From positions 865,909 to 889,908 of the forward strand of contig CAVZNZ010000012.1 in assembly GCA_963776815.1 (NCBI GenBank): a stretch of DNA of 24,000 nucleotides, read 5' to 3'. How positions within the stretch are numbered: the stretch's first letter is position 1; each line of letters starts with the position of its first letter. Made by a program: the position numbers and the translations under genes. The notes under the pieces are model-generated. The model worked only from the letters and a program-made list of their open reading frames with translations, was not told the origin of the DNA and made no database searches. This stretch comes from an uncultured Gammaproteobacteria bacterium. GTDB lineage: Bacteria; Pseudomonadota; Gammaproteobacteria; Steroidobacterales; Steroidobacteraceae. Shown here piece by piece: positions 3,076 to 23,542 of this stretch.

Positions 3076-3784
3076 ATGGCCGTGACCGAACCGCTTTTCC
3101 AGCAGGACGCCTACCTTCGCGAATGCAGGGCGCGCGTGATCGAAGTACTCGGCCGAGGGAGTGGTGCTCGACCGCACGGTCTTCTATCCGCTCGGCGGCG
3201 GGCAGCCCGGTGACACCGGTGCGCTTCGATCCACCGATGGGCGCGAATGGCGGGTGCAGGACGCCCGCAAAGGGGAGGGCGGTCGCATCGTGCACGTGCT
3301 TGCCGCCGGCGACCCGCCGCCCGAGGTCGGGGCGGAGGTGGAGGCGCGGCTCGACTGGGAGCGGCGGCACGCGCACATGCGCATGCACAGCTGCCTGCAC
3401 CTGCTCGGGTCGGTGCTGCGGTTCGGCGTCACCGGGGGCCAGATCACCGCGGACAAGGGCCGGCTCGATTTCGACACCCAGGAGGAGATCGACCCGGTCC
3501 AGGTGACCGCCGCGGTCAATGCGCTGGTCGAGGCCGACCACCCCACCCGGTCGACCTGGATCACCGACGAGGAACTCGACCGCCAGCCCGGGCTCGTCAG
3601 GACCATGTCAGTGCAGCCGCCCCGCGGGGCCGGCCGGATCCGCCTGCTGGAGATCCCCGGTGTGGACCTGCAGCCCTGCGGCGGGACGCACGTCGCCCGG
3701 ACCGGCGAAATCGGCCGGGTCGCGGTGACCCGCGTCGAAAACAAGGGGCGGCACAACCGGCGGGTATACGTAGCCTTCGCCTGA
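3076..3784 (+). CDS. AlaX-type alanyl-tRNA editing protein (mischarged tRNA-Ala deacylase), with one apparent +1 frame change near codon 27
   Basis: The ATG at 3076 gives MAVTEPLFQQDAYLRECRARVIEVLGRG. The ORF 3161..3784 then continues VVLDRTVFYPLGGGQPGDTG…, with the zinc motifs HSCLH and CGGTH. The two parts are offset by one base at GAGGGAG (3155-3160). Confidence 0.8.
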
Positions 3785-3885
3785 CCCCCACTGGTCCGGG
3801 GGCCGGGGGCAAACGGGCGGCCAATGCGCTACCATTCCCCGTTCCAACCGATGATCCGCGGGCTGCGGGACTGGACAAGGCGGGA

Positions 3886-4488
3886 ATGGCGCCCGGCACG
3901 GCATCAGGACAACGCAGGGGCGTGGCGACGATCAGGGGCGCGGACTTCACGACGGTGCCGAACCTGGTCTCCCTCGCGCGCATCGTCGGCGTGTCCGCCG
4001 CGGTCCTGCTCTATTTCGCCGGCTATCCGCGGGTGACCGTGGTGCTCGGCACGCTGGCATGCCTGACCGACCACCTGGACGGTTACCTCGCCCGCCGCCT
4101 CAACCAGGAGACCGCATTGGGAGCGATGCTGGACCAGGCCGCCGACAGCTTCACGACCGCGATCGCGCTCGCGATGCTGGTGATCGCCGGCGGCTTTCCG
4201 TTCGTCTTCCTGCTGGTGTTCCTGGCTCGCGAGTTCTGGGTGGCCACGGTCCGGCGTTTCGCGGCCATGGGCGGCGTGGAGATCCCGTCGCACGGTTCCG
4301 GCAAGTTCGCCACCGCATTCATCTACTGGGCGCTGCTGCTGATGGCGGTCGCCCTGATGCTCGACGTGCCTGAGACGACCGCGGCCTGGCTGAAGCCACT
4401 GGCGTTCGCGAGCATGGGCGCCGGCCTGCTGCTCAGCTGCCTGGCCGGGTGGCGCTATACGCGCGTGCTCGTCGGGAGTGCGGCATGA
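3886..4488 (+). CDS. CDP-alcohol phosphatidyltransferase, PgsA-like
   Basis: This is the C-terminal 200 aa of ORF 3247..4488, starting from the ATG at 3886. It has the full motif D-x2-DG-x2-AR-x8-G-x3-D-x3-D (DHLDGYLARRLNQETALGAMLDQAAD). It contains several hydrophobic helices. The preceding part of the ORF is Arg/Gly/Pro-rich junk that overlaps the AlaX gene. Confidence 0.8.
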   Translation: MAPGTASGQRRGVATIRGADFTTVPNLVSLARIVGVSAAVLLYFAGYPRVTVVLGTLACLTDHLDGYLARRLNQETALGAMLDQAADSFTTAIALAMLVIAGGFPFVFLLVFLAREFWVATVRRFAAMGGVEIPSHGSGKFATAFIYWALLLMAVALMLDVPETTAAWLKPLAFASMGAGLLLSCLAGWRYTRVLVGSAA

Positions 4489-5633
4489 CGTCGCCGGTCG
4501 TTCGGGCGCGGACCGACGTGCTGCTTTGTCCCGGGCCGGTGATGCTGTCGCCCGGAGTCAGGAAGGCGCTCGGCCAGTGCGACGTCGGCCATCGCGACGC
4601 ACGCTTCTCGCAGATCGTTTCCCGGCTGCGCCGCAACTGCGCGACGATGCTGGGCGCCGGCAGCGAGCACAGCGTGCTGTTCATCACCGGTCCGGCGACG
4701 GCGGGCATCGAGGCCACGTGCGCGTCGCTGTTCCCGGAGGACGGGACGGTCGTCGTCCCGGTGAACGGCGCGTTCGGGGAGCGCATCCTGCAGATCCTCG
4801 CGGTGCATGGCATACCGTCGCTGCCGGTCGATTTCGGGTTCGGGCAGCCATTCGACCTCGCGCGGATCGAGTCGGCGCTCGCAACGAGCGGGGCAATGCG
4901 GGTTTCGGCCGTCGCGATGACGCACCACGAGACGTCATGCGGGCTGGTGAATCCCGTGGCAGCCGTCTGCGAGATTGCGAAGCGCCACGGCCTGCGCACG
5001 TTCGTCGATGCGACATCGAGCGCCGGGGCCGAGGACCTGCACGTGACCCGGGACCGCATCGACGTCTGCGTCACGTCGTCCGGCAAGTGCCTGCACGGCG
5101 CGCCGGGCATCGCGCTCGTCTGCGTGCGGCGCGACTGGCTCGCCGAGAGGACGGACGCCCGCCCGCGGACGTTCTCGCTCGACCTGCGCCGCTATCACGA
5201 CCAGCTCGAGCTGAACTCGCAGACGCCGTTCACGCCCGCGGTGCCCGCCTTCCTCGCGCTGGATCGCGCGATCGAGGAGTTGCTCGAGCAGGGTGGCGTC
5301 GCCGAGCGCCGCCGCCAGTACCTGCGGCGCCGTTCGTACCTCGCCCAGGGGCTCGCGCGGCTCGGCCTGTCGCTGCTGCGACTGCCCGCGGGCAGCGAGG
5401 CGTGCTCGATACTCACGGTCACCGTCCCGGCATCGCTCGAGTTCGCGGACCTGTACGCCCGGATGCGCGAGCGCGGCTACGTGATCTACGGCGCGAAGGC
5501 GCCGCTGGCGCCGCGATATTTCCAGCTTGCGGTGATGGGCGACCTGACCGATGCCGACCTCGCCGGGTTCCTGGCGGCGCTCGAGTCGGTGTTGTCAGGC
5601 CCGGCGACGCATTACCGCGCCGCGACGGCGTAG
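4485..5633 (+). CDS. Class V (fold type I) aminotransferase, similar to 2-aminoethylphosphonate:pyruvate and serine:pyruvate transaminases
   Basis: The ATG at 4485 overlaps the previous stop (ATGA). The sequence contains LLCPGPVMLSPGVRKAL, HRDARF, AMTHHETSCG, DATSS and the PLP-lysine context SSGKCLHGAPG. It is 382 aa with no frame breaks. Confidence 0.8.
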   Translation: MTSPVVRARTDVLLCPGPVMLSPGVRKALGQCDVGHRDARFSQIVSRLRRNCATMLGAGSEHSVLFITGPATAGIEATCASLFPEDGTVVVPVNGAFGERILQILAVHGIPSLPVDFGFGQPFDLARIESALATSGAMRVSAVAMTHHETSCGLVNPVAAVCEIAKRHGLRTFVDATSSAGAEDLHVTRDRIDVCVTSSGKCLHGAPGIALVCVRRDWLAERTDARPRTFSLDLRRYHDQLELNSQTPFTPAVPAFLALDRAIEELLEQGGVAERRRQYLRRRSYLAQGLARLGLSLLRLPAGSEACSILTVTVPASLEFADLYARMRERGYVIYGAKAPLAPRYFQLAVMGDLTDADLAGFLAALESVLSGPATHYRAATA

Positions 5634-5676
5634 CCGGCGCGCGAGCCCGGGCGCCAGGCAGCAAGCGGCGAACGCA

Positions 5677-6162
5677 GTGTTCGACCTGGCCATCAACTCC
5701 AACGTCTTCCGCAACTGGCGGCACTGCCTCGCGTTCGGCTTCGGCAGCGGGCTCGCGAAATACGCCCCGGGTACTTTCGGCACGCTCGTCGCGATACCGC
5801 TCTATCTCGCGATCAGCGCGCTGCCGGCCTGGCTCTATGCCGTGACCGTCGTCGCCGCGTTCGCGCTCGGCGTGTGGATCTGCGACACGGTGTCGCGTGA
5901 CCTCGGGGTGCACGACCACGGCGGCATCGTGTTCGACGAGTTCGTCGGCTTCTGGATAACGATGTTCCTGGTGCCGCCGAGCGCGCTCGCGGTACTCGCG
6001 GGATTCGCTCTGTTCCGGCTGTTCGACATCTGGAAGCCGGGTCCGATCCGCTGGTGCGACCGCAACGTGCAGGGCGGATTCGGCATCATGGTGGACGACG
6101 TCGTTGCCGGCGTGGTCGCGTGCGCGGCGTTGCACCTGCTGCTGCGGGTGGTGGGCGCGTAG
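5677..6162 (+). CDS. pgpA: Phosphatidylglycerophosphatase A
   Basis: The sequence contains LAFGFGSGLAKYAPGTFGTL…VHDHGGIVFDEFVGFW…FRLFDIWKPGPIRW…GGFGIMVDDVVAG, which is collinear with E. coli PgpA. The start is taken at the GTG at 5677 to give about 161 aa. The start is less certain than the gene identity. Confidence 0.85.
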   Translation: MFDLAINSNVFRNWRHCLAFGFGSGLAKYAPGTFGTLVAIPLYLAISALPAWLYAVTVVAAFALGVWICDTVSRDLGVHDHGGIVFDEFVGFWITMFLVPPSALAVLAGFALFRLFDIWKPGPIRWCDRNVQGGFGIMVDDVVAGVVACAALHLLLRVVGA

Positions 6163-6164
6163 AC

Positions 6165-7025
6165 GTGGCGAGACTCGGGCTGCCTGCAGCGCTCGCGCTG
6201 GCCATCGTGTCCGCGATCGTGGCGCTCCTGCTGCTGCCACGAGGCCACCACGCATCGCCGACCGAACTGGCGTTCGTTGCGGTGGCCGTACCCGCGCTGC
6301 TCGCGCCGCTGTTCTGGCCGCGCGAGTGCCCGTCTGTCCGCAGGTTGCTGGTCTCGGCGCTCGGTCCGGTCGCCGCATTCGTGGTGACGTGCTGCGTGCT
6401 GCGGGTCCTGCACGGCGCCGTTGCGCTGCAGGGCGTCGTGCTCGCGGGACTCGTCGCGGTGCTGATGCTGGCCGTGCTGCACCAGCTCGCCGCCTTGATC
6501 GAGCCTGTCGTCCGGCGCCTGGGGGCGAGCGAGTCGTCGGCCCGCGAGTGGTCGCTGTGGAGCGTGACGGCACTGCTGTGGCTGGCCGCGGCCGCGCCTG
6601 CCTGGCTCGGTCCCGCGGCCGACCTCGGTGCCAGGACTGACCCGCGGTGGCCGTCGTTCGTGCTCGGGTCGAGCCCGCTCGCGCACCTGGCGTCGGCTTC
6701 CGGCTACGACGTGCTGCGTGGCCAGTGGTTCTATGCGCACTCGAGTCTCGGCGCGCTGCAGGTCGACTATCCGCGCGTCGCGACGCTGCTGATCGCCTAC
6801 GCGCTCGCACTGGTGGCGCTCACTCTGCTGGGTCGCGCCGAAGCTGCGCATGCTGCGTGCGCTGGCGCTGCTGGCCGTGCTCGGTGCAGCGAGTCATGCC
6901 GCGCACTCTGCGACCCCGCTCGATCTGGAAGTGGTGCCAGCCTGGGACGGCTGGACTCGTCCCGGGCGCATCACCGAACTCGATATCCGGCTGCGCTCGC
7001 AAGCAGCGGGATGCCGTGCGGGTGA
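6165..7025 (+). CDS. Polytopic membrane protein of unknown function; the 3' end is uncertain, and it may end near 6849 or be fused to the next ORF
   Basis: The GTG at 6165 lies 2 nt after the pgpA stop. About six hydrophobic segments are present (LPAALALAIVSAIVALLLL, FVAVAVPALLAPLF, GVVLAGLVAVLMLAVL, WSVTALLWLAAAAPAWL, TLLIAYALALVALTLL). After about 6845 the frame reads like an off-frame shadow (Arg/Ser/Cys-rich) of the next gene. Confidence 0.45.
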   Translation: MARLGLPAALALAIVSAIVALLLLPRGHHASPTELAFVAVAVPALLAPLFWPRECPSVRRLLVSALGPVAAFVVTCCVLRVLHGAVALQGVVLAGLVAVLMLAVLHQLAALIEPVVRRLGASESSAREWSLWSVTALLWLAAAAPAWLGPAADLGARTDPRWPSFVLGSSPLAHLASASGYDVLRGQWFYAHSSLGALQVDYPRVATLLIAYALALVALTLLGRAEAAHAACAGAAGRARCSESCRALCDPARSGSGASLGRLDSSRAHHRTRYPAALASSGMPCG

Positions 7026-8327
7026 CGCTGAACTCGGGTTCGAGCAGGGTTCGGACGGTCGTGCAGCTGGAGCCGGGACAGCAATCGAGCAGCGTGATTC
7101 CGGTGCGGGCGGCCGAGGTGATCGGTGTCGGGGTGGGCCGTGCTCGCGACTTGAATGCGTCACGTACAGTCCGTCTTGCGCTGTCCGAATCGCCATTGCT
7201 GGCGTGGGCCGCGGGCGTGCCGGCCCCTGGCGAGCTCGCCGGATTCCACACGGTGATGCTCGAGCCGGGCCAGCTGCCGCGCACCTCGTCGGCATACTCG
7301 AGCATCGACGCACTGGTCATCGACCGCCGTGTCGTGGCCGCTCTCGGTCAGCAGCAACTCGCGGCGCTGCTCGCATACCTGTCGGGTTGCGGCCGCGCCG
7401 TGCTGATCAGTGCTGCGTCGCGCGACGAGGGGCTGTTCCGCTCAGTGGCCGGCTGCGGAGGACGGGGCTTCGCGGTCGCCGCCAATGGACAGCAGGCGCT
7501 GACGCAGCTCGCGGGTATCCTTGCCACACCCTCGGCCGACACGCTGGAGCCCGCGGCGCTCGCATCCGTCATGGGGCCCGACCTGCGCTCGTGGAATCTC
7601 GTCGTGGCGTCGCTCGCGCTGTGCGCGGCCGCAATCGTAATTCTCGGGATCTTCACGTCGTCGCTGCTCGCCGCAGTCGCCTTGCCGGCGCTGCTGGCTG
7701 CTGCTGCGCTCGGGCTGGTGCAGACGAGATCGCCGATGGAACGACTGACGGTCTGGGCGGAAGCGGGTGCGGGCGAGCGGATTGCACAGTATCGCGGGCT
7801 GCAACAGGTGACCGGGCTGCGTCGCGGCCGGGCGGACGTGCGTGTGCTCGACGTGCTCGCGCGGCCAGCCGCCTGCCGCGCAGAAGATCGCGGCCAGTGG
7901 ACCTGGGACGCCGCCGCGCGCCGCTACTCCGGCGTTCACTTCGACAGCCGCCTGTTCGCCGGCGCCACGCTCTGCTATGCGGGCGAGTTTCCGGTAGCTC
8001 GTGAAGCCGCGGTGCATGTGACGCCGCAAGGCCGTTTGCTCCTTGCCAATGAAGGTGCCTCAGGCCTGCCGGCTGGCAAGCTTGCCTGGAACGGCCGGCT
8101 GTTCGAGGTCGATGCGCTCGCCGCGGGGCAGCAGGTCGAACTCGATCCCGGCCCGTGGCTCGATGCCGGCGGACGGTGCGCAAGCACTTGCACTCGCCCG
8201 GACACCGGTCGATGCGCAGGCGGTGCTGTGGCCATTGGAACTGCAGCGTGTTGCCGGTGCGCCCGCGCAGTCACAAGCATGGTTGCTCGTGAGTGCAGCA
8301 CAGGACCGCGCGGCGGTGATTCAGTGA
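6850..8327 (+). pseudogene. Unknown exported or membrane protein of about 490 aa, with a GATase1-like segment and central TM helices; two +1 frame changes as sequenced
   Basis: The ATG at 6850 gives MLRALALLAVLGAASHAAHSATPLDLEVVPAWDGWTRPGRITELDIRLRS. The sequence continues in the frame of ORF 6647..9712 (RDAVRVTLNSG…IDALVIDRRVVAALGQQQLAALLAYLSGCGRAVLI…two TM helices…LFEVDALAAGQQVELDPGPWLDAGG). It ends in the frame of ORF 8043..8327 (GAQALALARTPVDAQAVLWPLELQRV…AAVIQ*). The junctions are at about 7000-7010 and about 8170-8176. Confidence 0.5.
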
Positions 8328-8795
8328 GCACCCGACTCGGTCTCGCGCTGGGTCTGGCACTCGCCGGTGCCGTGGCGGCCTGGTGGCTCATCGCCAGCCG
8401 GATTGCGCTGCAGTCGGGCATCGATGCCGCGCTGCCTGCGGGCCAGGCGCTGCTCGTGCTCGCGGTGACGCGAGGCATGCTGGTCGCGGTGATCGCACCC
8501 AGGATCGCAGCGGTCGGCGGCTACGTCGCCGGGCTGCGTGTGTGCCTGCCGATCGTTGCGCTAGGGTGGCCGCTGGTGGCGCTGTCGTGGGCCGCGAGTT
8601 CGGCCGACACGTTGCGCACATTGTCCGCTGGAGGCTGGCCTGCTTGGGCTCGCGGCGCTGCTGCCGCTCGCCGGGCGTGCGCTGGCGCGACTGATGAAGC
8701 AGGGCCCGGTCACCGAAGCCGTGGCCGCGGCGGTCGGCGTGCTGCTCGCGTGCGGCGTGTGGCTCGTGCTGACGGGGCCGCTGCACGGCTCGTAA
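8324..8795 (+). pseudogene. Small polytopic membrane protein of unknown function, with one +1 frame change
   Basis: The GTG at 8324 overlaps the previous stop (GTGA). It reads VSTRLGLALGLALAGAVAAWWLIASRIALQSG…GWPLVALSWAASSADTLRTL. After about 8615-8630 the hydrophobic sequence continues in the next frame (LEAGLLGLAALLPLAGRALARLMKQGPVTEAVAAAVGVLLACGVWLVLTGPLHGS*) to the TAA at 8793-8795. Confidence 0.45.
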
Positions 8796-8878
8796 GGCAG
8801 GCGTGCGGCGGCAGCGGCGGAATCGTACGATGCCGGAGCCGCGCGCTTGCACGGCGTACGAGGGACGACGCGAGCATC

Positions 8879-9712
8879 ATGGGTAACATCGTCTGGCTGG
8901 CCTCTTACCCCAAGTCCGGCAACACGTGGCTGCGGGCGTTCCTCGCGAACCTCGTGGCCGACACGGAGGCACCGGTGCCGCTCGCCGAGCTGCCGCAGTA
9001 CTGCGACGACGAGGCGCGGCCCGAGCTCTTCACTCAGCTTGCCGGCCGGCCGAGCACCGAGCTCACGTTCGACGAGATCTGTGCGCTTCGTCCGCGCGTG
9101 CACGCCGCGATCGCGGCGCAGGCGCCCGGCACGCGACTCGTGAAGACGCACAACTGTGCAGGCTTCGTCGAGCGCTACCCGCTGCACGAGGGGGCGGTCA
9201 CGGCCGGGGCAATCTACGTGGTGCGTGACCCGCGTGACGTGGCGGTGAGCATGTCGCATCACTTCGGGCTCGACCTCGACGGGGCCATCGAGCGGCTTGG
9301 CGATGACCGGGTCGCGACGGTCAACGACGAGCTGTTCGTGACCCAGGTGCTGGGCTCGTGGTCACATCACGTCAGCAGCTGGGCCGATCTCGCCGGTCCG
9401 CGCGTCGTCGTGCTGCGTTACGAGGACCTGGTCGAAAACCCCGTCTTCGAGTTCACGAAGGCGGCGCGGCTGCTGAAGCTCGACGACGAGCGCGCGAGGA
9501 TCGAGCGCGCGGTGCGGCACGCGTCTTTCGAATCGCTTGCCGGACAGGAACGCGCCGAAGGCTTCGCCGAGGTCTCGGACAAGGCACGGCGCTTCTTCCG
9601 CGACGGCCGCTCGGGCCAGTGGCGAACCGAGCTCACGATGGAGCAGTCGGCGCGCGTGCTGGCAAGGCACGGCGCGCAGATGCAGCGCTTCGGCTACGCG
9701 GCGATGCGCTGA
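8879..9712 (+). CDS. PAPS-dependent sulfotransferase-domain protein (cytosolic type)
   Basis: The ATG at 8879 gives MGNIVWLASYPKSGNTWLRAFL, which is the 5'-phosphosulfate-binding loop. It is followed by IYVVRDPRDVAVSMSHH, the 3'-phosphate-binding motif. It is 277 aa, intact, and has no signal peptide. It is embedded as the last third of the artefactual 1021-aa ORF. Confidence 0.8.
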   Translation: MGNIVWLASYPKSGNTWLRAFLANLVADTEAPVPLAELPQYCDDEARPELFTQLAGRPSTELTFDEICALRPRVHAAIAAQAPGTRLVKTHNCAGFVERYPLHEGAVTAGAIYVVRDPRDVAVSMSHHFGLDLDGAIERLGDDRVATVNDELFVTQVLGSWSHHVSSWADLAGPRVVVLRYEDLVENPVFEFTKAARLLKLDDERARIERAVRHASFESLAGQERAEGFAEVSDKARRFFRDGRSGQWRTELTMEQSARVLARHGAQMQRFGYAAMR

Positions 9713-9770
9713 GGCGGGAGCCCGGCGGCGGCGTCCTGCCCGGTGCGTATGAAGTCGTAGCTCGAGGCGT

Positions 9771-11216
9771 TCACCCGGCGCGTCTGAGCCAGTAGCGCCA
9801 CGTCGACCACGGCCAGATGCTGAAGATGCGGCCATCGGACTGCCGGTAATAGCTCGCGCAGCCGGAAGACCAGACGGTGCCGCGCAATGCCTTCTGCACC
9901 CGTTCGTTGAAGCGGACCTGAGCCTGGGGCTTCACTTCCATGTAGTCCGCGCCGAGGCGCTTCAGGGTGCGGATGCAGTCGAGCACGTAATTCACCTGCG
10001 CCTCGATCATGAAGATGATCGAGTTGTGGCCTAGCGCGGTGTTGGGCCCGACCAGCTGGTGCAGGTTCGGGTAGCCGGCGACGTTGATGCCGTAATACGC
10101 CTCGGCGCCGTCCTTCCAGTCCTCGGTCAGCGTGTGGCCGGGCAGGCCCGTGATCGGGAAGTGCTGCATGTAGACGCGCGGGTCCACGACGAATCCGGTG
10201 CCGAGGACGATGCAGTCGACCGGGCGCTCGACGCCGTCGTCGGTCACGATCGAATCCGCGCGGATTTCGCGGATGCCGTTCGTCACCAGCTCGACGTTCG
10301 GTCGGTTGAACATCCTGAACCAGTCGTTCGAGATCAGCACGCGCTTGCAACCGAACGTGTACCCGGGCGTGAGTGCCTTGACGATCGCGGGATCCTTGAC
10401 CTGGTGTGCGAGGAAACGCCGCGACATCGCCTCGGGCATGCGTGCCAGTGCGGGGTGCAGCAACCCGATCAGTCGCGACTCGTTCTGCCAGTACAGCTGC
10501 CAGCGGTGCAGCTTCCTGAGCAACGGGAAGCGCGCGAAGCGACGCTTCTGCTCCTCCGTGTAGGTGCGCCTGTCGCGCGGGATCACCCAGGCCGGCGAGC
10601 GCTGGAAGACGTACAGCTTGCCGGTCCTCGGCGCGATCTCGGGGCAGTACTGGATTGCGCTGCCTCCAGTGCCGATCGACGCAACGCGCTTGCCCGCGAG
10701 GTCATAGCCATGGTCCCAGCGTGCCGAGTGGAACACCTTGCCACTGAACGACTCGAGTCCCGGGAGGTTCGGGATGTGCGGCACGTGCAGTGGTCCCGTC
10801 GCAAGGACGAAATGCCGCGCCGAGAGCTCGAGGCCTGATTTCGCGCCGATCCTCCAGCGGCCGCTTGCCGCGTCGAAGTGCGCCGAGTTCACTTCCTCGC
10901 CGAACCGGACGTAGCGGCGCACGCCGCGCCGCTCGGTCGTGTCGAGAATGTACTGCTGGATCTCCTCCCAGCCCGCGTAACGCCTGCTCCAGTCCGGCTT
11001 GCCGGCGAAAGAGTACGAGTAGAAATGCGACTGCACGTCGCACGCAGCTCCTGGATAGTTGTTGTCGCGCCAGGTACCGCCGACTTCACTGCCCTTCTCG
11101 AGAATCACGAAATCGCGGATACCGGCCTCGAGCAGCCTGATACCCATGCACAATCCGCCGAATCCGGCGCCGACGATGGCGACTTCGACCTCGTGCGCGG
11201 TGTGTGGGTCTTTCAT
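9771..11216 (-). CDS. Flavin-dependent Baeyer-Villiger-type monooxygenase (type I BVMO / FMO family)
   Basis: The ATG at 11216 gives MKDPHTAHEVEVAIVGAGFGGL (FAD GxGxxG motif). The sequence also has GGTWRDNNYPGAACDV, the BVMO fingerprint FSGKVFHSARWD, and a second dinucleotide motif (SIGTGGSA). It is 481 aa and intact. Confidence 0.85.
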   Translation of the reverse strand: MKDPHTAHEVEVAIVGAGFGGLCMGIRLLEAGIRDFVILEKGSEVGGTWRDNNYPGAACDVQSHFYSYSFAGKPDWSRRYAGWEEIQQYILDTTERRGVRRYVRFGEEVNSAHFDAASGRWRIGAKSGLELSARHFVLATGPLHVPHIPNLPGLESFSGKVFHSARWDHGYDLAGKRVASIGTGGSAIQYCPEIAPRTGKLYVFQRSPAWVIPRDRRTYTEEQKRRFARFPLLRKLHRWQLYWQNESRLIGLLHPALARMPEAMSRRFLAHQVKDPAIVKALTPGYTFGCKRVLISNDWFRMFNRPNVELVTNGIREIRADSIVTDDGVERPVDCIVLGTGFVVDPRVYMQHFPITGLPGHTLTEDWKDGAEAYYGINVAGYPNLHQLVGPNTALGHNSIIFMIEAQVNYVLDCIRTLKRLGADYMEVKPQAQVRFNERVQKALRGTVWSSGCASYYRQSDGRIFSIWPWSTWRYWLRRAG

Positions 11217-11368
11217 GCATGATTGCGGGGCCCGGGGTGGCCTGCCGGCTAGTCCGGCCACGGGCGCATGATGCCCGAATCGAGCCGCTTCGGGGCCGCA
11301 CCGCGGCCGATCATATACTGCAGATCGTCGGCGCGGCGGGCGCCGGCGCGGCAGACGGGACTCCGACC

Positions 11369-12453
11369 ATGCTCAAGGCCTACGGAAGATTGCGACGGCG
11401 CTGGTGATCTGCGCCGTGCTTCCGGCCTGCAAGGCCACGGATTCTCCCGAGGCTGCGGGATCGCCCTCCGCTTCGACGATCGGCACTCAAGGGCTGCGCC
11501 TCCCCGCGACATTCCCCGGCGACCTGCCGTGCTGCGACTGCAGGCTGTCCGCTATCACCTCGACCTGTGGCCGGACCACGGCTACCAGTTGCGCCGCGTA
11601 TGGGTCGGGCGCGACCTCGAGCGTGACGAGGTCGGCGGGTGGCGCATCGATCCGGGTGGCAACGGGCTGATGCTGTACGGCGCCAGCGAGATGCCACTGC
11701 AGTTCGAGATTCTCGCGCCCGACAGGCTGCGGCTGCTGGACACGCTGAACCAGTCGCTGTCTTCCCATGAGCTGGTGAGCGACGGAACCTTCAGTCCTGC
11801 CGACGTGACACTGACGCTCGGTGGCGAAATGACGTACATGGCGGACGCGGCGAGCTTCACCGAGTGCATGACCGGTCGCAGCTACCCGATCGCGATCGGA
11901 AGGGTGACTTCGTGCAGCTGGAGCGCGCTTATGTCGCGGCCGTCGCATCGCCGGGCGCGAGACTCTACGTCACTTTCGACGGCTCGATCGTCGATCGTCC
12001 GAAGATGGAAGGAGAGGGCTCGAGCGCACCGTCGTCGTGAACCGGTACATCAACGTGTGGCCCGGCGAGCAATGTGAGCGCGCGAGGGCGCACGCATCGC
12101 TGTCGAACACCTACTGGCGCGTCGTTCGTCTCGGCGACGAGGCTGTCCGTGCGGCCGAGGGTCATCGCGAGCCCCACCTTGTCCTTCGCGAAGGGGACGG
12201 GCGGCAGGATTACACTGCCACCGTGGGCTGCAACAAGCTGGCAGGCGGTTACTCCGTGGATGTCGAGTCGATCAGATTCACGCCAGCCGCGTCGGCGCTC
12301 GCGCCCTGCGCGCCGCCACTCGCCGCGATGGAACGGTCGCTTGCGGCCATGCTCGCGAAGGCTGAGCGCTGGAGCATCACTGCCAGCACGATGGAGTTCT
12401 TCGATGCAGCGGGCCAGCCTGTCGCGCTGTTCGAAGCCGTGTACCTGAGATGA
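11369..12453 (+). pseudogene. Lipoprotein combining an NlpE N-terminal-like domain and a C-terminal META (HslJ-like) domain; four -1 frame changes as sequenced
   Basis: The ATG at 11369 (MLKA…) is followed by RKIATALVICAVLPAC, which contains a lipobox. Next comes ATFPGDLPCCDC, then AVRYHLDLWPDHGYQLRR…LRLLDTLNQSLSSHELV (NlpE-like), then GDFVQLERAYVAAVASPGARLYVTFDGSIVDRPKMEGEG. The final part is LERTVVVNRYINVWPGEQCE…LSNTYWRVVRLGDEAV…GCNKLAGGY…MEFFDAAGQPVALFEAVYLR* (META domain). The junctions are at about 11372-11385, 11538-11545, 11895-11902 and 12012-12020. Confidence 0.65.
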
Positions 12454-14218
12454 GCGAGGCCGCGCGACCGGCGCGCAAGCATCCGCTGCGCGATTTCTGG
12501 CGCCTGGCGGGCCCCTACTGGAACTGCGAGCGGCGCGGCAGGGTTCGTGGCGCGACGTTGCTGCTGTTCCTGCTCACGGTGGCGCAGGTCGGGCTGACCG
12601 TCTGGGGCAACTACTGGAACCGCGCGCTGTTCGACGCTCTGGAGCAGCGCACTGCGCGTGGCGTGCTGGTGCAGGTGGCGGTGTTCGCGCTGATCTTCGC
12701 GATCTCGATCGCAGTGACGGCTGCGCATCTCGTCGTGAAGCGCTGGCTGCAGCTGGACTGGAGAGCCTGGCTGACGGAGCAGCTGGTCGGCCAGTGGATG
12801 GCCGATGGACGCCACTACCGGCTGCTCTTCAGCAGCGGCGAGCACGACAACCCGGACCAGCGCATCGCGGAGGACATCCGCATCGCCACCGAGACCGCGG
12901 TCGCGCTGGCGCACTCGCTGGTTTTCTCGCTGATGGTCCTCGTGATGTTCGTGGACATCCTCTGGTCCGTGTCGGGCTCGATCGTGGTGCCCGGTACCGA
13001 CGTCGAGGTGCCGGGCTACATGGTGCCGCTGGCGTTCGTGTACGCGGCCGTCGGTGGCGCACTCGGCTGGATGGTCGGCCGCCCGCTCGTGCGCACGACC
13101 AACGCGCTGCAGTCGGCGGAAGCGACGTTCCGGTTCGGCCTGTCGCGCGCCAGGGAACACACCGAGGCGATCGCGCTGATGCACGGCGAGCCGCTCGAGC
13201 AGGCCGGCTCGCAGACGCGATTCCGCCGGATCGTGCGCGACTGGGACCGTCAGACGCTCGCCTTCGTGGGACTGGTTTCGTTCGGCACTGCGTACGGCGC
13301 GCTGATGCCGGTGTTCCCGATCCTGATCGCGGCGCCGCAATACATCGCCGGTGCGATGTCGCTCGGCGTGCTGATGCAGGCGGCCCAGGCGTTCCAGGGC
13401 CTGACTTCAGCGCTGTCGTGGCCCGTGAACAACATCGGCGAGATCGCCCGCTGCCGCGCATCCGCCGACCGCGTGCTCTCGCTGCACGAGGACATGCAGC
13501 AGCTGGATGTCGAGGCGCGGGCACCGCAGGCCGCATCGGATCGTGCTCGAACGGGACGGGCGCGATCGCCTGGTAATCGATGACCTCTGCATCGCGGAGC
13601 CGTCCGGTCGCGTGCTGCTCGAACGGTTCAGCGCGGAGATCCGGCGTGGTGAACGGGTGCTGGTCAAGGGTGATCCCGCGGTTACCGGCAGTCTTCTTCA
13701 AAGTCGTCGGCGGGCTCTGGCCATGGGGCGCGGGCCGGGTCGTGCGGCCGCAGGACGACGACGCGCTGTTCCTGCCGCAGCGCCCGTTCCTGCCCGAAGG
13801 CACGCTGCGCGCCGCTTTGTGGTATCCACGCGCGCCGGACGAATCCGCCGACGCAGATGTGCGGACTGCGCTCGAACGCGCGGGCGTCGGGTGGCTTGCG
13901 CGCGAGACTCGACGACCAGGACAACTGGGAGCAGTCATTGCCGCTGGGTGCGCAGCAGCGGCTCGGCTTCGCCCGCGTGCTGCTGCACCGGCCCGCGTGG
14001 GTGTTCATGGAACAGGCGACCGACGCGTTCGACCCGGACGGGGAGCGGCTGATCTTCGAAATGCTCCACCGCGAACTGCCCAATGCCGCGCTGGTGACGG
14101 TGAGCTTCCATCCCGGCCTCGAGGCCCTGCACCACCGCGAACTGGTGCTGACGCAGATGGTCGAGACGAAGTACCTGTTCGATGGCCGCCGGCGCAACGG
14201 CGACAACGATCACGATAG
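12450..14218 (+). pseudogene. Fused ABC permease/ATPase with an SbmA-BacA / ABCD-type membrane domain and a degenerate nucleotide-binding domain; at least three +1 frame changes; 3' end uncertain
   Basis: The ATG at 12450 overlaps the upstream stop (ATGA). The membrane domain contains EHDNPDQRIAEDIRI. The NBD is split across frames: IVLERDGRDRLVIDDLCIAEPSGRVLLERFSAEIRRGERVLVKGDPAVTGS, then LFKVVGGLWPWGAGRVVRPQDDDALFLPQRPFLPEGTLR, then RLDDQDNWEQSLPLGAQQRLGFARVLLHRPAWVFMEQATDAFD. The junctions are at about 13535, 13695 and 13898. The stop is taken as the TAG at 14216-14218 after a further frame change near 14155. Confidence 0.7.
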
Positions 14219-19886: not shown

Positions 19887-22800
19887 TCAATACACCTCCG
19901 CGCGGGGTTCGTCGGCGCGAATGCCGAGGTTGCCGTAGCGATGGTAGTCGGTGCTGATGCTCTGCTCGCGCACGTACCAGAGCAGTTCGAGCCGGCCCTC
20001 GGCCGACACGGGCACGCTCACGACGCAGCCATTGGCCGCGTTGCCGGCCTGCAGCACTTCGAGCGACGCCCGGTCCGGGCGCGGCATAGCGGACGCGGTC
20101 CACCTGTCCCGCGCGCGATCGACCTGCGCCAGTTGCGCGTCGGACTCCTCGACGAACTCGATCGCGCCGGCCCAGGACTCCGTCAGCGCCTCCAGCCTCG
20201 CGACGATGGCCGACTCGAGCCCGGGCGGCGTGCTGATCACGACGCCGCAGCCGGCGACATGCGCCGCGCACGCGCGGGCGAAGACGTCGAAGGCAGTGTC
20301 GTCCGGATGCACGCGAACCCGCACGCTGCCGACCGGCAGGTAGCGCCGGACGTTGTCCTGGCCGACGAGCCGGAAGTGATCGTGCTCGACGCCGAACTCC
20401 TCGCGCTGGTTGCGTTCGTAGCTCACCGCCGCGGCGCGTATGCGCGCGTCGTCCCGGGTCGGGCCTGCGTCCGAGCCCGGCGCACAGCGCTGCGAGGCTC
20501 GGCAGTGCGCGGCGAACCGTCCGCCGGTGCCGTGGCCACGTCCTCGAAGTCCATGAACTGCGCGACGTAGTTCGGCCCGCCGGCCTTCATGCCCGGGCCG
20601 AAGCCCGACTTGCCCATGCCGCCGAACGGCTGGCGCAGCACGATCGCGCCGGTGGTGACGCGGTTGATGTAGAGGTTGCCGGCGCGGATGTGCTCCTTCC
20701 AGTAGTCCCACTCGCGCTCGTCGAGGCTCTCGAGGCCGCTGGTGAGGCCGTAGCCGGTCTGGTTCACGAGCGCCACGGCCTCGCTCAGCTTCTCGAACCG
20801 CATCACGGCCAGCACCGGGCCGAAGAACTCCGTCAGGTGCGTGAAGCTGCCGGGCCGCACGCCGTACTTCACGCCGGGCGTCCACAGGTACGGGTTGCCT
20901 TCGACCGGCTGCGGCATCACGGCCCATTCCTCGCCGGGCTCGAGCACCTTCAGCGCGGTCTCGAGGTCGCCGCGACGGCGGCCGGATCAGCGGCCCCATC
21001 TTCGTGTCGAGCTCCCACGCCGAGCCGACCTTCATGCTCTGCACGGCCTCGCACAGCGCGCGCCGGAACGCCGGATCGTCGTAGACCTCGGCCTGCAGCA
21101 GCAGCAGCGACGTCGCGGAGCACTTCTGGCCCGCGTGGCTGAACGCCGAATGGAGGATGTGCTTGATCGCCTGGTCGCGGTCGGACACCGCCGTCACGAT
21201 CGTCGCGTCCTTGCCGCCGGTCTCGGCGAACAGGCTCGAGCCGCGGGTTGTCGTTCAGCATCGTCAGCGCCGTCTCGGTGCCGCCGGTGAGGATGACGGC
21301 GTTGACCTTCGGGTGGTTGACGAGCTTGCGGCCCTCGCGTGCGCCGGAGCACGGCACGAACTGCAGCGCCTGCTTCGACACGCCGGCGCGCCAGAAGCAC
21401 TGGCACAGCTCCCATGCGACGAGCACCGTGTCGGAGGCCGGCTTGATGATGACCGTGTTGCCCGCCGCGAGCGCCGCGGCCACGCCGCCGCACGGAATGG
21501 CGATCGGGAAATTCCACGGCGGCACCACGACGACCACGCCCTTCGGCCGCGCCCGCAGCGACGGCATCTGCTGCCACCAGCGCGCCGTGTCGCGGTAGAA
21601 CTCGAGGAAGTCGATCGCCTCGGAAACTTCGGGATCGGATTCCATCAGCGTCTTGCCGCCGTCGGCCAGCGCCGCGCCCATCAGGTCGCCGCGCGCCACG
21701 CGCAGCTCCTGCGCGACGCGGCCGAGCACTTCGAAGCGCTGCTCGACCGGCATGGATCGCCAGCCGTCGGGATCGGCCGCGGCGCATTCGACGGCGCGCG
21801 CGATGTCGGCGCTCGGTCGCCTGCCGATAGCGGCCGACGACCACGCCGGGACGCGAAGGGTCGAGGCACTCGCGGACCGGGCGGCCGTCGAACATGTCCT
21901 CGCCGGCGATCACGAGCGGCACCTGCACCGCCGCGTCGCCGCAGCGCGGCTGCCACGCGGCGACGATCTGCTCGCCCCACTCGCCGTTCTGCGGCAGCGC
22001 GAAGTCCGTGTCCGGCTCGTTCTCGAGGTGCTGCCAGCCGCGCGCGAGTGCGGCGGGCACGGCGGGCGGCTGGTTGCGGTCCTGGTCGCGACGCGGCGCA
22101 TCGCTCGACCGTGTCGATCGCGTCGAACGCGGCGAGGAAACCCTGCTCCAGCTTGCTGCCACTCCGGGCTGTCGACCTCGATCTTGAACGCGTGGCGCAG
22201 GAAGTTCTCGGGCCCGGTGTTCTCGTCGAGCCGGCGGATCAGGTAGCCGATCGCGTTGATGAAGTTCTCCTTGCGGCAGGCCGGCGCGTACAGCAGCAGG
22301 TTGCGCGACAGCTCGAACAGCGCGCGGCGCTGCGCGTTCGCCATGCCTTCGAGCATCTCGAACTGCACCTTGTCGAGCGCGTCGCGCTCGTGCGCGAGCA
22401 CCAGGCCGTAGGCGAGGTCGAACAGGTTGTGCGACGCGACGCCGACGTCCATCGCGGCGAGGTTCTCCGGCTTCATCACCTCGTGGACCATGCGCTTGTA
22501 GTTCGCGTCCGTCTCGAGCTTGGTCCGGTACGGCGCCTGCGGCCAGCCGCGCGACCGAGGACTCGGCGCGCTCGCTCTCCATGTTCGCGCCCTTGACGAG
22601 CCGGATCGTGATGCGTCCGCCGCCCGCGGCGACGCGCCGCGCGCGCCCACGCCTGCAGCTCGAGCAGCGTGCGGTACGAGTCGGGGATGTAGCTCTGCAA
22701 CGCGATGCCGGCGCGCACGTGCCCGAGGCCGTCGCGGTCCAGCGTGCGCATGAACGCCTCGGCGGTGAGTTCCTTGTCGCGGTACTCCTCCATGTCGAGG

Positions 22801-23542
22801 TACACGAACTTGGGCACCACGGTGCCGTCCGGCCGCGTGAACCGCGCGCGATCCGCGGTGCGGAACAGGCGCTCCAGGCGATCGCACAGCACGCTGACGG
22901 TGTGCTCGCGTGCCAGCGGCGAGATCTGCGAGTACAGCGTCGAGATCTTGATCGAGACCACCTCGATCTCGGGCCACTGCAGGCCCTGCAGGTACTGCTG
23001 CAGGCGCCGCTCGGCCTCGGGCTCGCTCAGGATCGCCTCGCCGAGGAAGTTCACGTTCATCCGCACGCCCTCGGCGCGCCGCTCGCCGAGGTGGCGCGTG
23101 AGCATCGTCCTGCTCGCCGGGCAGGATGACGTTGGCGGTCTCCTTCTGCATGTGCTCCTTCACCAGCGGCAGCGCGACGCCGGGCACGAAGCCGCCGAAC
23201 GACTGGAAGCCCTTCATCAGCGTGCGGTCGATCGGCCCGAAGAAGCGCGGCACGCCCTGCACGTCGAGGATGTGCGTCAGGTGCTCCACGGCGCGTGCGG
23301 GATCGCTGGTGCGGAACGCCTGGTCGGTCATCAGCGCCAGCGTCGCCTTGTCCGACGGCGTCTGGAGCATCCGGTCGAGCTCGGCCTGCTGGCGACGCTC
23401 CGAGGGCGTCTGCAGCGCGCGCGCGCGTTCCTGCAGGCGGCGTGCCAGCAGCAGCGCTTTCTGCACGGTAGCCTGGATACCGCGAGGCCGGGTCGGGCAC
23501 GAACGCGTCTAGCAGTGCATGGAGCGAGTCTGTGTTGGGCAT
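19887..23542 (-). pseudogene. putA: Bifunctional proline dehydrogenase / L-glutamate-gamma-semialdehyde dehydrogenase PutA (about 1214 aa), split by about 11 +1 frame changes
   Basis: PutA sequence is collinear across ORFs 23057..23569, 21910..23466, 22476..23105, 21194..22582, 20950..21753, 19887..21197 and 20423..20947. Recognisable segments include MPNTDSLHALLDAF, IQATVQKALLLARRLQ, NVNFLGEAILSE, ITIRLVKGANMESERAE and APYRTKLETDANYKRM. Further segments are EGMANAQRRAL, PPWNFPIAIPCGG, FAETGGKDATIV, HAGQKCSATS, RQPFGGMGKSGFGPG and a C-terminal domain. The length of 3656 nt minus 11 equals 1215 codons. Confidence 0.9.

Follow-up and report, generated by a model that had tools for sequence, protein, structure and literature searches.

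A conserved transferase–aminotransferase–PgpA gene trio in uncultured bacteria as a candidate pathway to an amino-alcohol glycerophospholipid

Gene organization of the locus

Six genes, all on the + strand, lie at positions 3886–9712 of the window, the 24,000-nucleotide stretch of DNA analyzed here. Gene 1 (3886–4488) encodes a 200-amino acid PgsA-like CDP-alcohol phosphatidyltransferase (Pfam PF01066, 97.6 bits), gene 2 (4485–5633) a 382-amino acid class V (PhnW-like) PLP aminotransferase (Pfam Aminotran_5, 80.6 bits), and gene 3 (5677–6162) a 161-amino acid lipid phosphate phosphatase of the PgpA family (Pfam PF04608, 150.1 bits). They are followed by homologues of two membrane protein genes, p719 (6165–8327) and p156 (8324–8796), and by a gene (8879–9712) for a 277-amino acid PAPS-type sulfotransferase of the cytosolic SULT type (Pfam Sulfotransfer_1, 101.8 bits). 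Direct reading of the sequence reveals an ATGA overlap between the stop of gene 1 and the start of gene 2 (4485–4488), TAG-ac-GTG at 6160–6167, leaving a 2-nt gap (6163–6164) between the PgpA and p719 genes, and GTGA at 8324–8327, a 4-nt overlap between the p719 and p156 genes. Gene 3 starts at GTG 5677, a position fixed by the 161–163-amino acid orthologues in loci L001 and L004, 43 nt 3' of the aminotransferase stop, and the sulfotransferase gene starts at 8879, 82 nt 3' of the preceding gene. Coding in the called frames is supported by a third-position GC frame plot.

The p719 and p156 frames are broken in the window. In the intact relatives L001 and L004, the region 6165–8327 corresponds to one gene of 715–719 amino acids, and 8324–8796 to one of 149–156 amino acids. 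A tblastn alignment with the intact L001 protein runs through frames 3, 1, 2 and 3 of the p719 region, with insertions near 6846, 7001 and 8147, and the p156 alignment passes from frame 2 to frame 3 at about 8626, with an insertion near 8625. These four single-base insertions are probably sequencing errors.

An earlier note on this DNA had described six or seven genes with almost no spacing. The shared strand, the tight spacing and all three junctions were borne out, but there are six genes, not seven, and the 43-nt and 82-nt gaps are wider than described. Its family assignments stand: profile searches recovered CDP-OH_P_transf, Aminotran_5, PgpA and Sulfotransfer_1, the CDP-alcohol motif of the PgsA-like protein is complete, 2-aminoethylphosphonate (AEP) transaminases are nearest to the aminotransferase that it had placed in a PhnW/AGXT-type class V group, and the sulfotransferase motifs of the last gene are present.

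Conservation and distribution of the three-gene core

The conserved unit is the first three genes (3886–6162) rather than all six. In 35/35 related loci, the transferase gene lies directly upstream from the aminotransferase gene; the spacing ranges from −19 to +15 nt, and the two genes most often overlap by 1 or 4 nt. The PgpA gene lies directly downstream from the aminotransferase gene in 36 of 39 loci, nearly always within 45 nt (a lone value of 459 nt, at L008, is an artefact of frame handling by the script). This order and spacing persist across aminotransferase identities of 51–94% and in genomes of 54–72% GC; the flanks are unrelated among distant loci, and an opposite-strand gene has been seen right after PgpA. 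Recurring in 35/35 and 36/39 independent loci, the arrangement is far beyond chance, which supports the functional unit of transferase, aminotransferase and PgpA claimed in the earlier note; the block that it had proposed to compare between relatives is conserved for genes 1–3, but not for the genes downstream. Three loci (L013, L034 and L038) have no PgpA gene adjoining the aminotransferase gene, which counts against the pathway that we favor below.

The hosts belong to uncultured lineages only, represented by MAGs or metagenome contigs, and many are uncultured soil bacteria. Across 185,579 species genomes scanned, the only real relatives came from 32 MAG loci (L007–L038); two matches in isolates were weak (29–31% identity).

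The downstream genes

The p719 and p156 genes lie beside the trio only in relatives with an aminotransferase identity of at least 74%, p156 always accompanying p719. Neither protein matches a Pfam or NCBIfam family, and p719 has only 33 homologues among 5.8 billion proteins. In the AF2 model of p719 (pLDDT 81), a membrane domain of several helices at the N terminus precedes a beta-sandwich and an alpha/beta domain, after which come a pair of transmembrane helices and a C-terminal domain rich in beta structure; Foldseek found no meaningful match to this model in the PDB. Distant p719 homologues sit in MoxR/DUF58/BatA/VWA clusters without lipid genes, and are followed in L048 and L049 by a 158–165-amino acid gene of about the size of p156. 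The two genes are probably a separate envelope cassette that neighbors the trio.

Among solved structures, the sulfotransferase comes closest to human SULT1A1/1B1 and the Teg12/Teg14/StaL enzymes; it is linked to the trio within one clade only, in which it might modify the product of the trio. Its gene is present at L001, L002, L004, L007, L009, L011 and L050, and the identical six-gene order at these loci (aminotransferase identity 74–94%), together with the single strand and the short junctions at 6163–6164, at 8324–8327 and before 8879, could be taken to indicate one pathway, in which genes 1–3 would make a lipid, the sulfotransferase would sulfate it and the membrane proteins would flip, export or otherwise handle it. 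The free hydroxyl or amine of serinol would be a chemically reasonable sulfate acceptor. We nevertheless give such a pathway only a small chance of being correct. The whole extension, including the sulfotransferase, is missing from all loci with an aminotransferase identity of 71% or less; the sulfotransferase gene is missing from L008 and L010, although both carry p719 and p156 (in L008, the gene after p156 encodes an amino-acid permease); a DUF2147 gene separates p156 from the sulfotransferase gene in L050; the distant p719 homologues and their similar-sized small gene keep other company; and the sulfotransferase is of a generic small-molecule SULT type. The clade with the six-gene order also retains an AlaX gene upstream and an FMO gene downstream, so the co-occurrence may be inherited gene order only. 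The sulfated head group and the participation of the membrane proteins, both suggested in the earlier note, are thus not upheld.

The PgsA-like transferase and the PgpA phosphatase

Gene 1 contains ARRLNQETALGAMLD within the full motif D-x2-DG-x2-AR-x8-G-x3-D-x3-D, and resembles PgsA in size and helix pattern. Its best NCBIfam match is pgsA and its closest families are the CDP-diacylglycerol (CDP-DAG) users PgsA and ClsA, but it scores 77.6 bits against TIGR00560 (cut-off 109.1), 44 bits against the proteobacterial model NF008090 (cut-off 304) and 29 bits against the PIPSynth model (cut-off 170). Among 1.84 billion proteins searched with gene 1, only six cluster representatives reached E ≤ 1e-30, and canonical PgsA sequences ('DPLADK...GKxKT') surfaced only at about 66 bits. 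In the numbering of Staphylococcus aureus PgsA, D57, D60, R65, G74, D78, D82, R110, R118 and K135 are retained in 35/35 orthologues, whereas K75 is replaced by Ala, K83 by Ser (34/35) and K137 by Ala (35/35). Three cationic residues surround the 3'-phosphate (terminal phosphate) of PGP in S. aureus PgsA, and K83 and K137 are two of these (PMC8640168). Position 83 is also not Lys in many uncharacterized PgsA-like proteins, so an amino substrate cannot be deduced from this change by itself; the loss of both lysines leaves a less positively charged predicted pocket, which would fit a substrate bearing its own ammonium group. Judged by these comparisons, gene 1 is a divergent paralogue and not a canonical pgsA. 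Gene 3 has PgpA as its best NCBIfam match, and scores 184.4 bits against NF008288, under the cut-off of 226.

The locus might simply serve ordinary phosphatidylglycerol synthesis, with gene 1 as PgsA, gene 3 as PgpA and the aminotransferase as an unrelated passenger. The best family matches of genes 1 and 3, and the intact catalytic motif and R110/R118, agree with this explanation, but it is improbable given the scores of gene 1 below both pgsA cut-offs, the family-wide replacement of K83 and K137, the tiny group of orthologues (six representatives at E ≤ 1e-30, with MAG loci L007–L038 only in the genome scan) and the translational coupling of the aminotransferase to gene 1 in 35/35 loci. The rarity of these orthologues, seen in the genome scan in MAGs only, implies that related bacteria must use another pgsA; a separate housekeeping pgsA in the host genomes is an assumption, which leaves some room for the ordinary route.

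A product without diacylglycerol, either a soluble phosphodiester solute (as di-myo-inositol phosphate) or a phospho-amino-alcohol placed on LPS core, a glycolipid or a polymer, also seems unlikely. The CDP-alcohol transferase family includes enzymes with donors other than CDP-DAG and phosphorylated intermediates that are later dephosphorylated, and archaeal and DIPP synthase models match gene 1 weakly. However, the nearest families, PgsA and ClsA, use CDP-DAG, the transferase has PgsA-like dimensions, and the PgpA family consists of membrane lipid phosphatases. The annotated operon neighborhoods contain no cytidylyltransferase that could supply another CDP-alcohol, making ready-made CDP-DAG the natural donor.

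The aminotransferase

The closest solved structures to gene 2 are the AEP transaminases 7E7G, 9KK8 and 1M32, with which it has the fold, the PLP lysine and the aspartate in common, and JGI labels its homologues 2-aminoethylphosphonate–pyruvate transaminase. Its scores are nonetheless under both PhnW cut-offs (299 bits against 360.8 for TIGR03301; 228.7 bits against 400.8 for TIGR02326). In 24 family members, D175, K201, T250, H36-R37 and Q347 do not vary. It weighs against the head group proposed below that its identity depends on residue readings for which genes 1 and 2 were aligned to remote structures (about 30–38% identity). In 4/4 solved AEP transaminases, the position of Q347 is occupied by the Arg of the FR(V/I)G strand, which aligns with Arg340 of the Salmonella enzyme, the residue that we take to bind the phosphonate. 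The aligned Arg347 of Arabidopsis AGT1 binds the substrate carboxylate and is said to be 'found in all aminotransferases'. H36-R37, in place of Trp-Asp in PhnW, aligns with Tyr35'-Arg36' of AGT1 and His41'-Arg42' of Escherichia coli phosphoserine aminotransferase (PSAT). On this evidence, gene 2 is a divergent class V aminotransferase and not a canonical PhnW.

A PSAT-like distal-anion site combined with the absence of an Arg for the alpha-carboxylate fits what DHAP and serinol phosphate would require, as these compounds are phosphohydroxypyruvate and phosphoserine with CH2OH in place of COOH. The carboxylate of the amino-acid donor would also have no conserved Arg to bind it, which counts against the DHAP reading. 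The top NCBIfam and PDB matches, all AEP transaminases, and the JGI label could instead point to a true AEP transaminase in an operon making or remodeling a phosphonolipid. We consider this highly improbable: both cut-offs are missed, the position of Salmonella Arg340 is Gln in 24/24 members, the PEP mutase motif 'EDKx5NS' was not found in the 695 kb that the window and 47 other loci make up, and neither phosphonopyruvate decarboxylase nor cytidylyltransferase occurs in the annotated neighborhoods. Moreover, a C–P bond offers PgpA nothing to hydrolyze, and AEP has no hydroxyl with which to attack CDP-DAG.

Proposed pathway and comparison with known systems

The reading that we favor, with about as much doubt as confidence, is that the trio would make an amino-alcohol glycerophospholipid by the two-step logic of phosphatidylglycerol synthesis. 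The soluble PLP aminotransferase would transaminate a phosphorylated keto compound to give an amino alcohol phosphate; DHAP to serinol phosphate is the most economical case, the substrates and product being inferred. The PgsA-like membrane enzyme would couple the free hydroxyl of the amino alcohol to CDP-DAG, releasing CMP, and PgpA would take off the terminal phosphate to yield 'phosphatidylserinol', phosphatidylglycerol with an amine in place of the 2'-hydroxyl. CDP-DAG might also react with DHAP first, with transamination on the lipid second and an identical end product. Glyceraldehyde-3-P, erythrose-4-P and pentulose phosphates are possible alternative substrates. The earlier note's amino-alcohol head group made from a keto-phosphate is thus kept as the most economical reading, with which the residue changes agree, but without the six- or seven-gene pathway; the note knew of no characterized pathway with this gene set, and the searchable literature holds no described pathway or paper with it. 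Such a lipid would be an undescribed membrane lipid, and phosphatidylserinol, if made, would be net neutral like phosphatidylethanolamine (PE), without PssA/Psd.

The closest parallel is the PgsA/PgpA route (E. coli; S. aureus PgsA, 7DRJ/7DRK), in which a phosphorylated alcohol is likewise coupled and its terminal phosphate then stripped. The trio differs in its dedicated, translationally coupled aminotransferase, the family-wide replacements at K75, K83 and K137, a transferase and a PgpA under equivalog cut-offs, and its restriction to rare operons of uncultured lineages. Phosphatidylinositol is made in Actinobacteria and Bacteroides by phosphatidylinositol-phosphate synthase and a PIP phosphatase; there too, a dedicated enzyme encoded nearby provides a PgsA-like enzyme with a phosphorylated alcohol other than glycerol, and the coupled product is then dephosphorylated, but the head group is inositol, supplied by a synthase rather than an aminotransferase. 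The MprF aminoacyl-phosphatidylglycerol synthases and the PssA/Psd route to PE also put an amine on a phosphatidylglycerol- or PE-like head group and make the membrane less negative. They are functional analogues in outcome, with entirely different enzymes, and the trio would involve neither tRNA-dependent transfer nor decarboxylation.

[quoted passage not shown] These systems have in common with the trio the chemistry proposed here (DHAP transamination, attachment through the free end, phosphate removal). They yield rhizobitoxine and an amide decoration of a capsule sugar rather than a lipid, and Cj1435 is a HAD-type phosphatase, whereas the trio has PgpA.

Gene content and conservation of the operon

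The conserved unit in this part of the window (G+C content of about 69%) consists of three genes on the plus strand: a PgsA-like transferase (gene 1, 3886–4488; CDP-OH_P_transf, PF01066, 97.6 bits), a class V aminotransferase (gene 2, 4485–5633; Aminotran_5) and a PgpA (gene 3, 5677–6162; PF04608, 150.1 bits for a gathering threshold of 28, profile positions 2–140 of 141). They are preceded by an AlaX-like alanyl-tRNA editing gene with a tRNA_SAD domain (3161–3784), and followed by genes for a membrane protein of 715–719 aa (p719; 6165–8327), a membrane protein of 149–156 aa (p156; 8324–8796) and a sulfotransferase (8879–9712; Sulfotransfer_1, PF00685, 101.8 bits for a gathering threshold of 22). 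An earlier note had described this region as a six- or seven-gene operon for an aminated or sulfated phospholipid head group. Its four family assignments are borne out by Pfam, and the complete CDP-alcohol phosphatidyltransferase motif is present around ARRLNQETALGAMLD. The ATGA overlap at 4485–4488, the TAG-ac-GTG junction at 6160–6167 and the GTGA overlap at 8324–8327 were all read directly in the sequence, and the frames of the Pfam-matched genes are supported by a third-position GC plot. Scanning 3600–9900 for promoters and terminators gave nothing informative. The gene calls had to be amended in two respects: PgpA starts at the GTG at 5677, and the stretch 6165–8796 contains two genes rather than three or four.

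When 185,579 species, each represented by a single genome, were scanned with an alignment of aminotransferase homologues, 34 loci were returned. Thirty-two are real relatives (L007–L038), every one of them from a metagenome-assembled genome (MAG); the label is Steroidobacteraceae or Gammaproteobacteria for most of them, and the GC content of a second clade is 54–58%. The remaining two matches come from isolates, Buchananella felis and Peptidiphaga gingivicola, and are only 29–31% identical. In tblastn searches with the proteins of the window against 41 non-redundant loci, the window included, the transferase gene was immediately 5' of the aminotransferase gene in all 35 loci for which sequence was available, with gaps of −19 to +15 nt, mostly 1- or 4-nt overlaps, and PgpA was immediately 3' of the aminotransferase in 36 of 39 loci (the exceptions being L013, L034 and L038). 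In distant relatives, these genes stand alone, with unrelated flanks and an opposite-strand gene directly after PgpA. The conserved unit is, thus, made up of three genes, and adjacency by chance, an objection that the earlier note had raised against its own proposal, is refuted by this constancy of order. The notion of a block conserved as a unit holds for the transferase, aminotransferase and PgpA genes, but not for p719, p156 or the sulfotransferase.

The AlaX-like gene is found 5' of the operon in Steroidobacteraceae-like loci but not in other clades, and its position is a matter of lineage synteny rather than a functional link. One MAG (MFD00905.bin.3.435) carries two copies of the operon, L009 and L036, with aminotransferases 77% and 65% identical to gene 2, reflecting either true paralogy or mixed binning. 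The clade with 54–58% GC that has the three-gene operon (L020, L022, L024, L027–L030, L032 and L035) comprises bins labelled delta proteobacterium, Anaerolineae, Candidatus Angelobacter and Pyrinomonadaceae. Their transferases are nearly identical despite these varied labels, which suggests mis-binning or recent horizontal spread.

Divergence from PgsA and PhnW

The PG route follows the same two-step logic as the three genes, the nearest sequence relatives of which are PgsA and PgpA, plus PhnW for the aminotransferase. The PI route via PIP also shares this logic. Gene 1 and gene 2 differ from PgsA and PhnW in their sub-cut-off scores and in their substrate-binding residues. Gene 1 retains the metal-binding residues D57, D60, D78 and D82, together with R65 and G74, in 35 of 35 orthologues, but scores only 77.6 bits against the pgsA model TIGR00560 (cut-off 109.1) and 44.4 bits against the proteobacterial pgsA model NF008090 (cut-off 304). 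In Staphylococcus aureus PgsA, the 3'-phosphate of PGP is held by K83, R110, R118, K137 and Y181, and K83 and K137 form, with R110, an electropositive pocket at the terminal phosphate of PGP (PMC8640168). When the orthologues of gene 1 are aligned with this protein (Y181 lies outside the alignment), R110 and R118 are kept, whereas K83 is replaced by Ser in 34 of 35 and K137 by Ala in 35 of 35. Plain PG synthesis, which the two-step logic and the likeness to PgsA and PgpA might suggest, is weakened as an explanation by these scores and by the replacement of the two lysines and, judged by its sequence, gene 1 falls outside the canonical PgsA proteins. HMMER, run with gene 1 over 1.84 billion cluster representatives, retrieved only six at E ≤ 1e-30, and sequences with the canonical PgsA signature ('DPLADK...GKxKT') appeared only at about 66 bits. 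The scan also brought up a sizeable group of uncharacterised PgsA-like proteins (P0160–P0199), 34–45% identical to gene 1, with signatures such as 'LDQFSDL...GKLKTN' or S/A variants (P0166, P0217), from which the canonical Lys83 is absent; these proteins may be further non-PG head-group transferases.

In the gene 2 family, the PLP lysine K201 and the aspartate contacting the pyridine nitrogen, D175, are invariant, and in the alignment K201 occupies the position that the catalytic Lys has in 1m32, 7e7g and 9kk8. The scores of gene 2 are below the PhnW cut-offs for TIGR03301 (299 vs 360.8 bits), NF010006 (243 vs 296) and TIGR02326 (228.7 vs 400.8). Position 347 is Gln in all 24 family members aligned, and in all four solved AEP transaminases this position is occupied by the Arg of an FR(V/I)G strand. 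In the AEP transaminase 1M32 this residue is Arg340, which presumably binds phosphonate or carboxylate; a literature search on Arg340 found no paper. Arabidopsis AGT1 also differs from the gene 2 family at this position, where it has Arg347, a binder of the substrate carboxylate described as 'found in all aminotransferases' (PMC6797613). His36-Arg37, invariant in the gene 2 family, appears to correspond to Tyr35'-Arg36' in AGT1 and to His41'-Arg42' in the phosphoserine aminotransferase of Escherichia coli, a mapping derived from the match coordinates with 6PK1 and from the agreement in position of D175, K201 and T250. A role in phosphonate metabolism, the reading that would go with a PhnW-like aminotransferase, is weakened by the Gln347 found in place of Arg and by the absence of the PEP mutase motif (EDKx5NS) from 695 kb of related loci; the annotated neighbourhoods have no genes for PEP mutase, phosphonopyruvate decarboxylase or phosphonatase. 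On these residues and scores, gene 2 does not qualify as a canonical PhnW, and 'PhnW' is probably a misannotation in these metagenomes. Gene 3 also falls short of the model for its E. coli equivalog, with 184.4 bits against NF008288 (cut-off 226).

A predicted pathway to an amino-alcohol phospholipid

The donor would be CDP-DAG, the sole CDP-alcohol at hand without a dedicated cytidylyltransferase, given that no such enzyme is encoded by the operon; the alternative of a product other than a diacylglycerol lipid is weakened. The action of a PgsA-like enzyme and then of PgpA suggests an acceptor with a phosphate as well as a free hydroxyl, and the aminotransferase, having no partner dehydrogenase, would draw its carbonyl substrate from central metabolism. 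DHAP appears to be the best-fitting carbonyl, and its amination would yield serinol phosphate, which is glycerol-3-phosphate with an amine in place of the 2-hydroxyl. The putative aminotransferase site, phosphoserine-aminotransferase-like for the distal anion and with no arginine for the alpha-carboxylate, would agree with DHAP, and a transferase pocket minus two positive charges would agree with serinol phosphate. The predicted product is phosphatidylserinol, a net-neutral PG analogue. The order of the steps may be different, with DHAP coupled first and transamination occurring on the lipid, which would lead to the same product. The transamination of DHAP to serinol phosphate is established for RtxA and Cj1437, and Campylobacter jejuni takes off the phosphate only once the group has been attached; the comparison is made at the level of chemistry (PMC3222319, PMC11800397).

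Comparative genomics makes the three-gene pathway a well-supported hypothesis, and there seems to be an even chance that these genes constitute an amino-alcohol phospholipid module. It is possible, with the balance somewhat against it, that they produce an undescribed lipid class, an amino-alcohol PG analogue (phosphatidylserinol or a lipid close to it), which would arise in a 'transaminate, couple, dephosphorylate' version of the PG pathway and might be sulfated in one clade; that the head group is serinol specifically is doubtful. A full-text literature search found no paper on a phosphatidylserinol-type lipid or on a transferase/aminotransferase/PgpA gene set. Few bacterial phospholipid head-group routes are known (PG, CL, PS/PE, PC, PI and aminoacyl-PG), and this pathway, if true, would add a new lipid class to them. 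It would also bring a new specificity to each of two much-studied enzyme families, the PgsA-like transferase acting on an amino-alcohol phosphate and the class V transaminase working without the 'universal' carboxylate-binding Arg. Uncultured soil Steroidobacteraceae-like bacteria would gain from it a lipid that resembles PE or neutralises charge, and that requires neither PssA/Psd nor MprF. A neutral PG analogue would alter membrane charge and, thus, how susceptible the cells are to cationic peptides and to lipopeptide antibiotics. Although all the natural hosts are uncultured, the hypothesis is directly testable in E. coli with three small genes.

Membrane proteins, sulfotransferase and broken reading frames

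Close relatives (L001, L002 and L004, from JGI and ENA metagenomes, aminotransferase identity 78–93%) have the gene order AlaX-like, transferase (200 aa), aminotransferase (382 aa), PgpA (161–163 aa), p719 (715–719 aa), p156 (149–156 aa; neither membrane protein has a Pfam family), sulfotransferase (277 aa) and, on the opposite strand, an FMO-like gene. The pathway of the earlier note, in which six genes produce a sulfated lipid, corresponds to this arrangement, and is weakened by the limited distribution of its last three members: p719 and p156 join the three conserved genes solely in loci with an aminotransferase identity of at least 74%, and the sulfotransferase is present in only a subset of these loci (it is lacking in L008 and L010). 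In another related locus, L050, a DUF2147 gene lies between p156 and the sulfotransferase. The sulfotransferase has readable PAPS-type motifs, 5'-PSB (PKSGNTW) and 3'-PB (RDPRDVAVS), and resembles cytosolic small-molecule SULTs.

The p719 family has 33 members among 5.8 billion proteins, and the most distant of these (36–42% identity) lie in MoxR-AAA+/DUF58/BatA/VWA clusters without lipid genes. Distant sequences homologous to the C-terminal portion of p719 (~490 aa) occur in L048 (2654–4665) and L049 (647–2574), beside genes for MoxR-type AAA+, DUF58, BatA and VWA proteins, and each distant homologue is followed by a gene for a protein of 158–165 aa, likened to p156 by size alone. The arrangement suggests an envelope cassette that is uncharacterised and akin to Bat/MoxR systems. 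In L048, a gene weakly resembling the C-terminal domain of squalene-hopene cyclase lies upstream of the p719 homologue. A specific tie of p719 and p156 to the lipid operon is rejected in view of the distant homologues; the two proteins belong to a separate cassette with a putative envelope role. Pfam and NCBIfam searches with intact p719 and p156 gave no family, only a sub-threshold match to DUF6232. The AF2 model of p719 is confident (pLDDT 81) and comprises a multi-helix membrane domain, a beta-sandwich, an alpha/beta domain, two further membrane helices and a beta-rich C-terminal domain, and its comparison with the PDB gave no informative match.

In the window, the p719 gene has three frame changes and the p156 gene one, caused by single-base insertions at about 6846, 7001, 8147 and 8625. 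Insertions were called relative to relatives 90–93% identical, and most of those in the window fall within short homopolymeric or dinucleotide stretches. An SbmA/BacA-type ABC transporter gene is likewise disrupted (insertions at 13536, 13694 and 13900), as is an NlpE/META gene; the affected positions include about 11897–12019, and PutA, on the minus strand, is split into several ORFs (19887–23466), with separate Pro_dh and Aldedh ORFs. This spread of disrupted genes across the window suggests sequencing or long-read assembly errors rather than pseudogenes or a specific loss of p719 and p156; several of the relatives are long-read MAGs. Selective pseudogenisation of the membrane-protein genes is rejected, because the ABC transporter, NlpE/META and PutA genes are also split. 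A contig from the same population, against which the frameshifts could be checked, was sought by an exact-pattern scan (no matches) and a protein-guided metagenome scan (best match only 87% identical), and no exact match was found for the aminotransferase of the window. An ABG_transport (AbgT-type) gene is missing from the window at 11262–11500, the equivalent region of L001 being 8074–9729; in L001, L002, L004 and L050, this gene sits between the FMO and NlpE/META genes.
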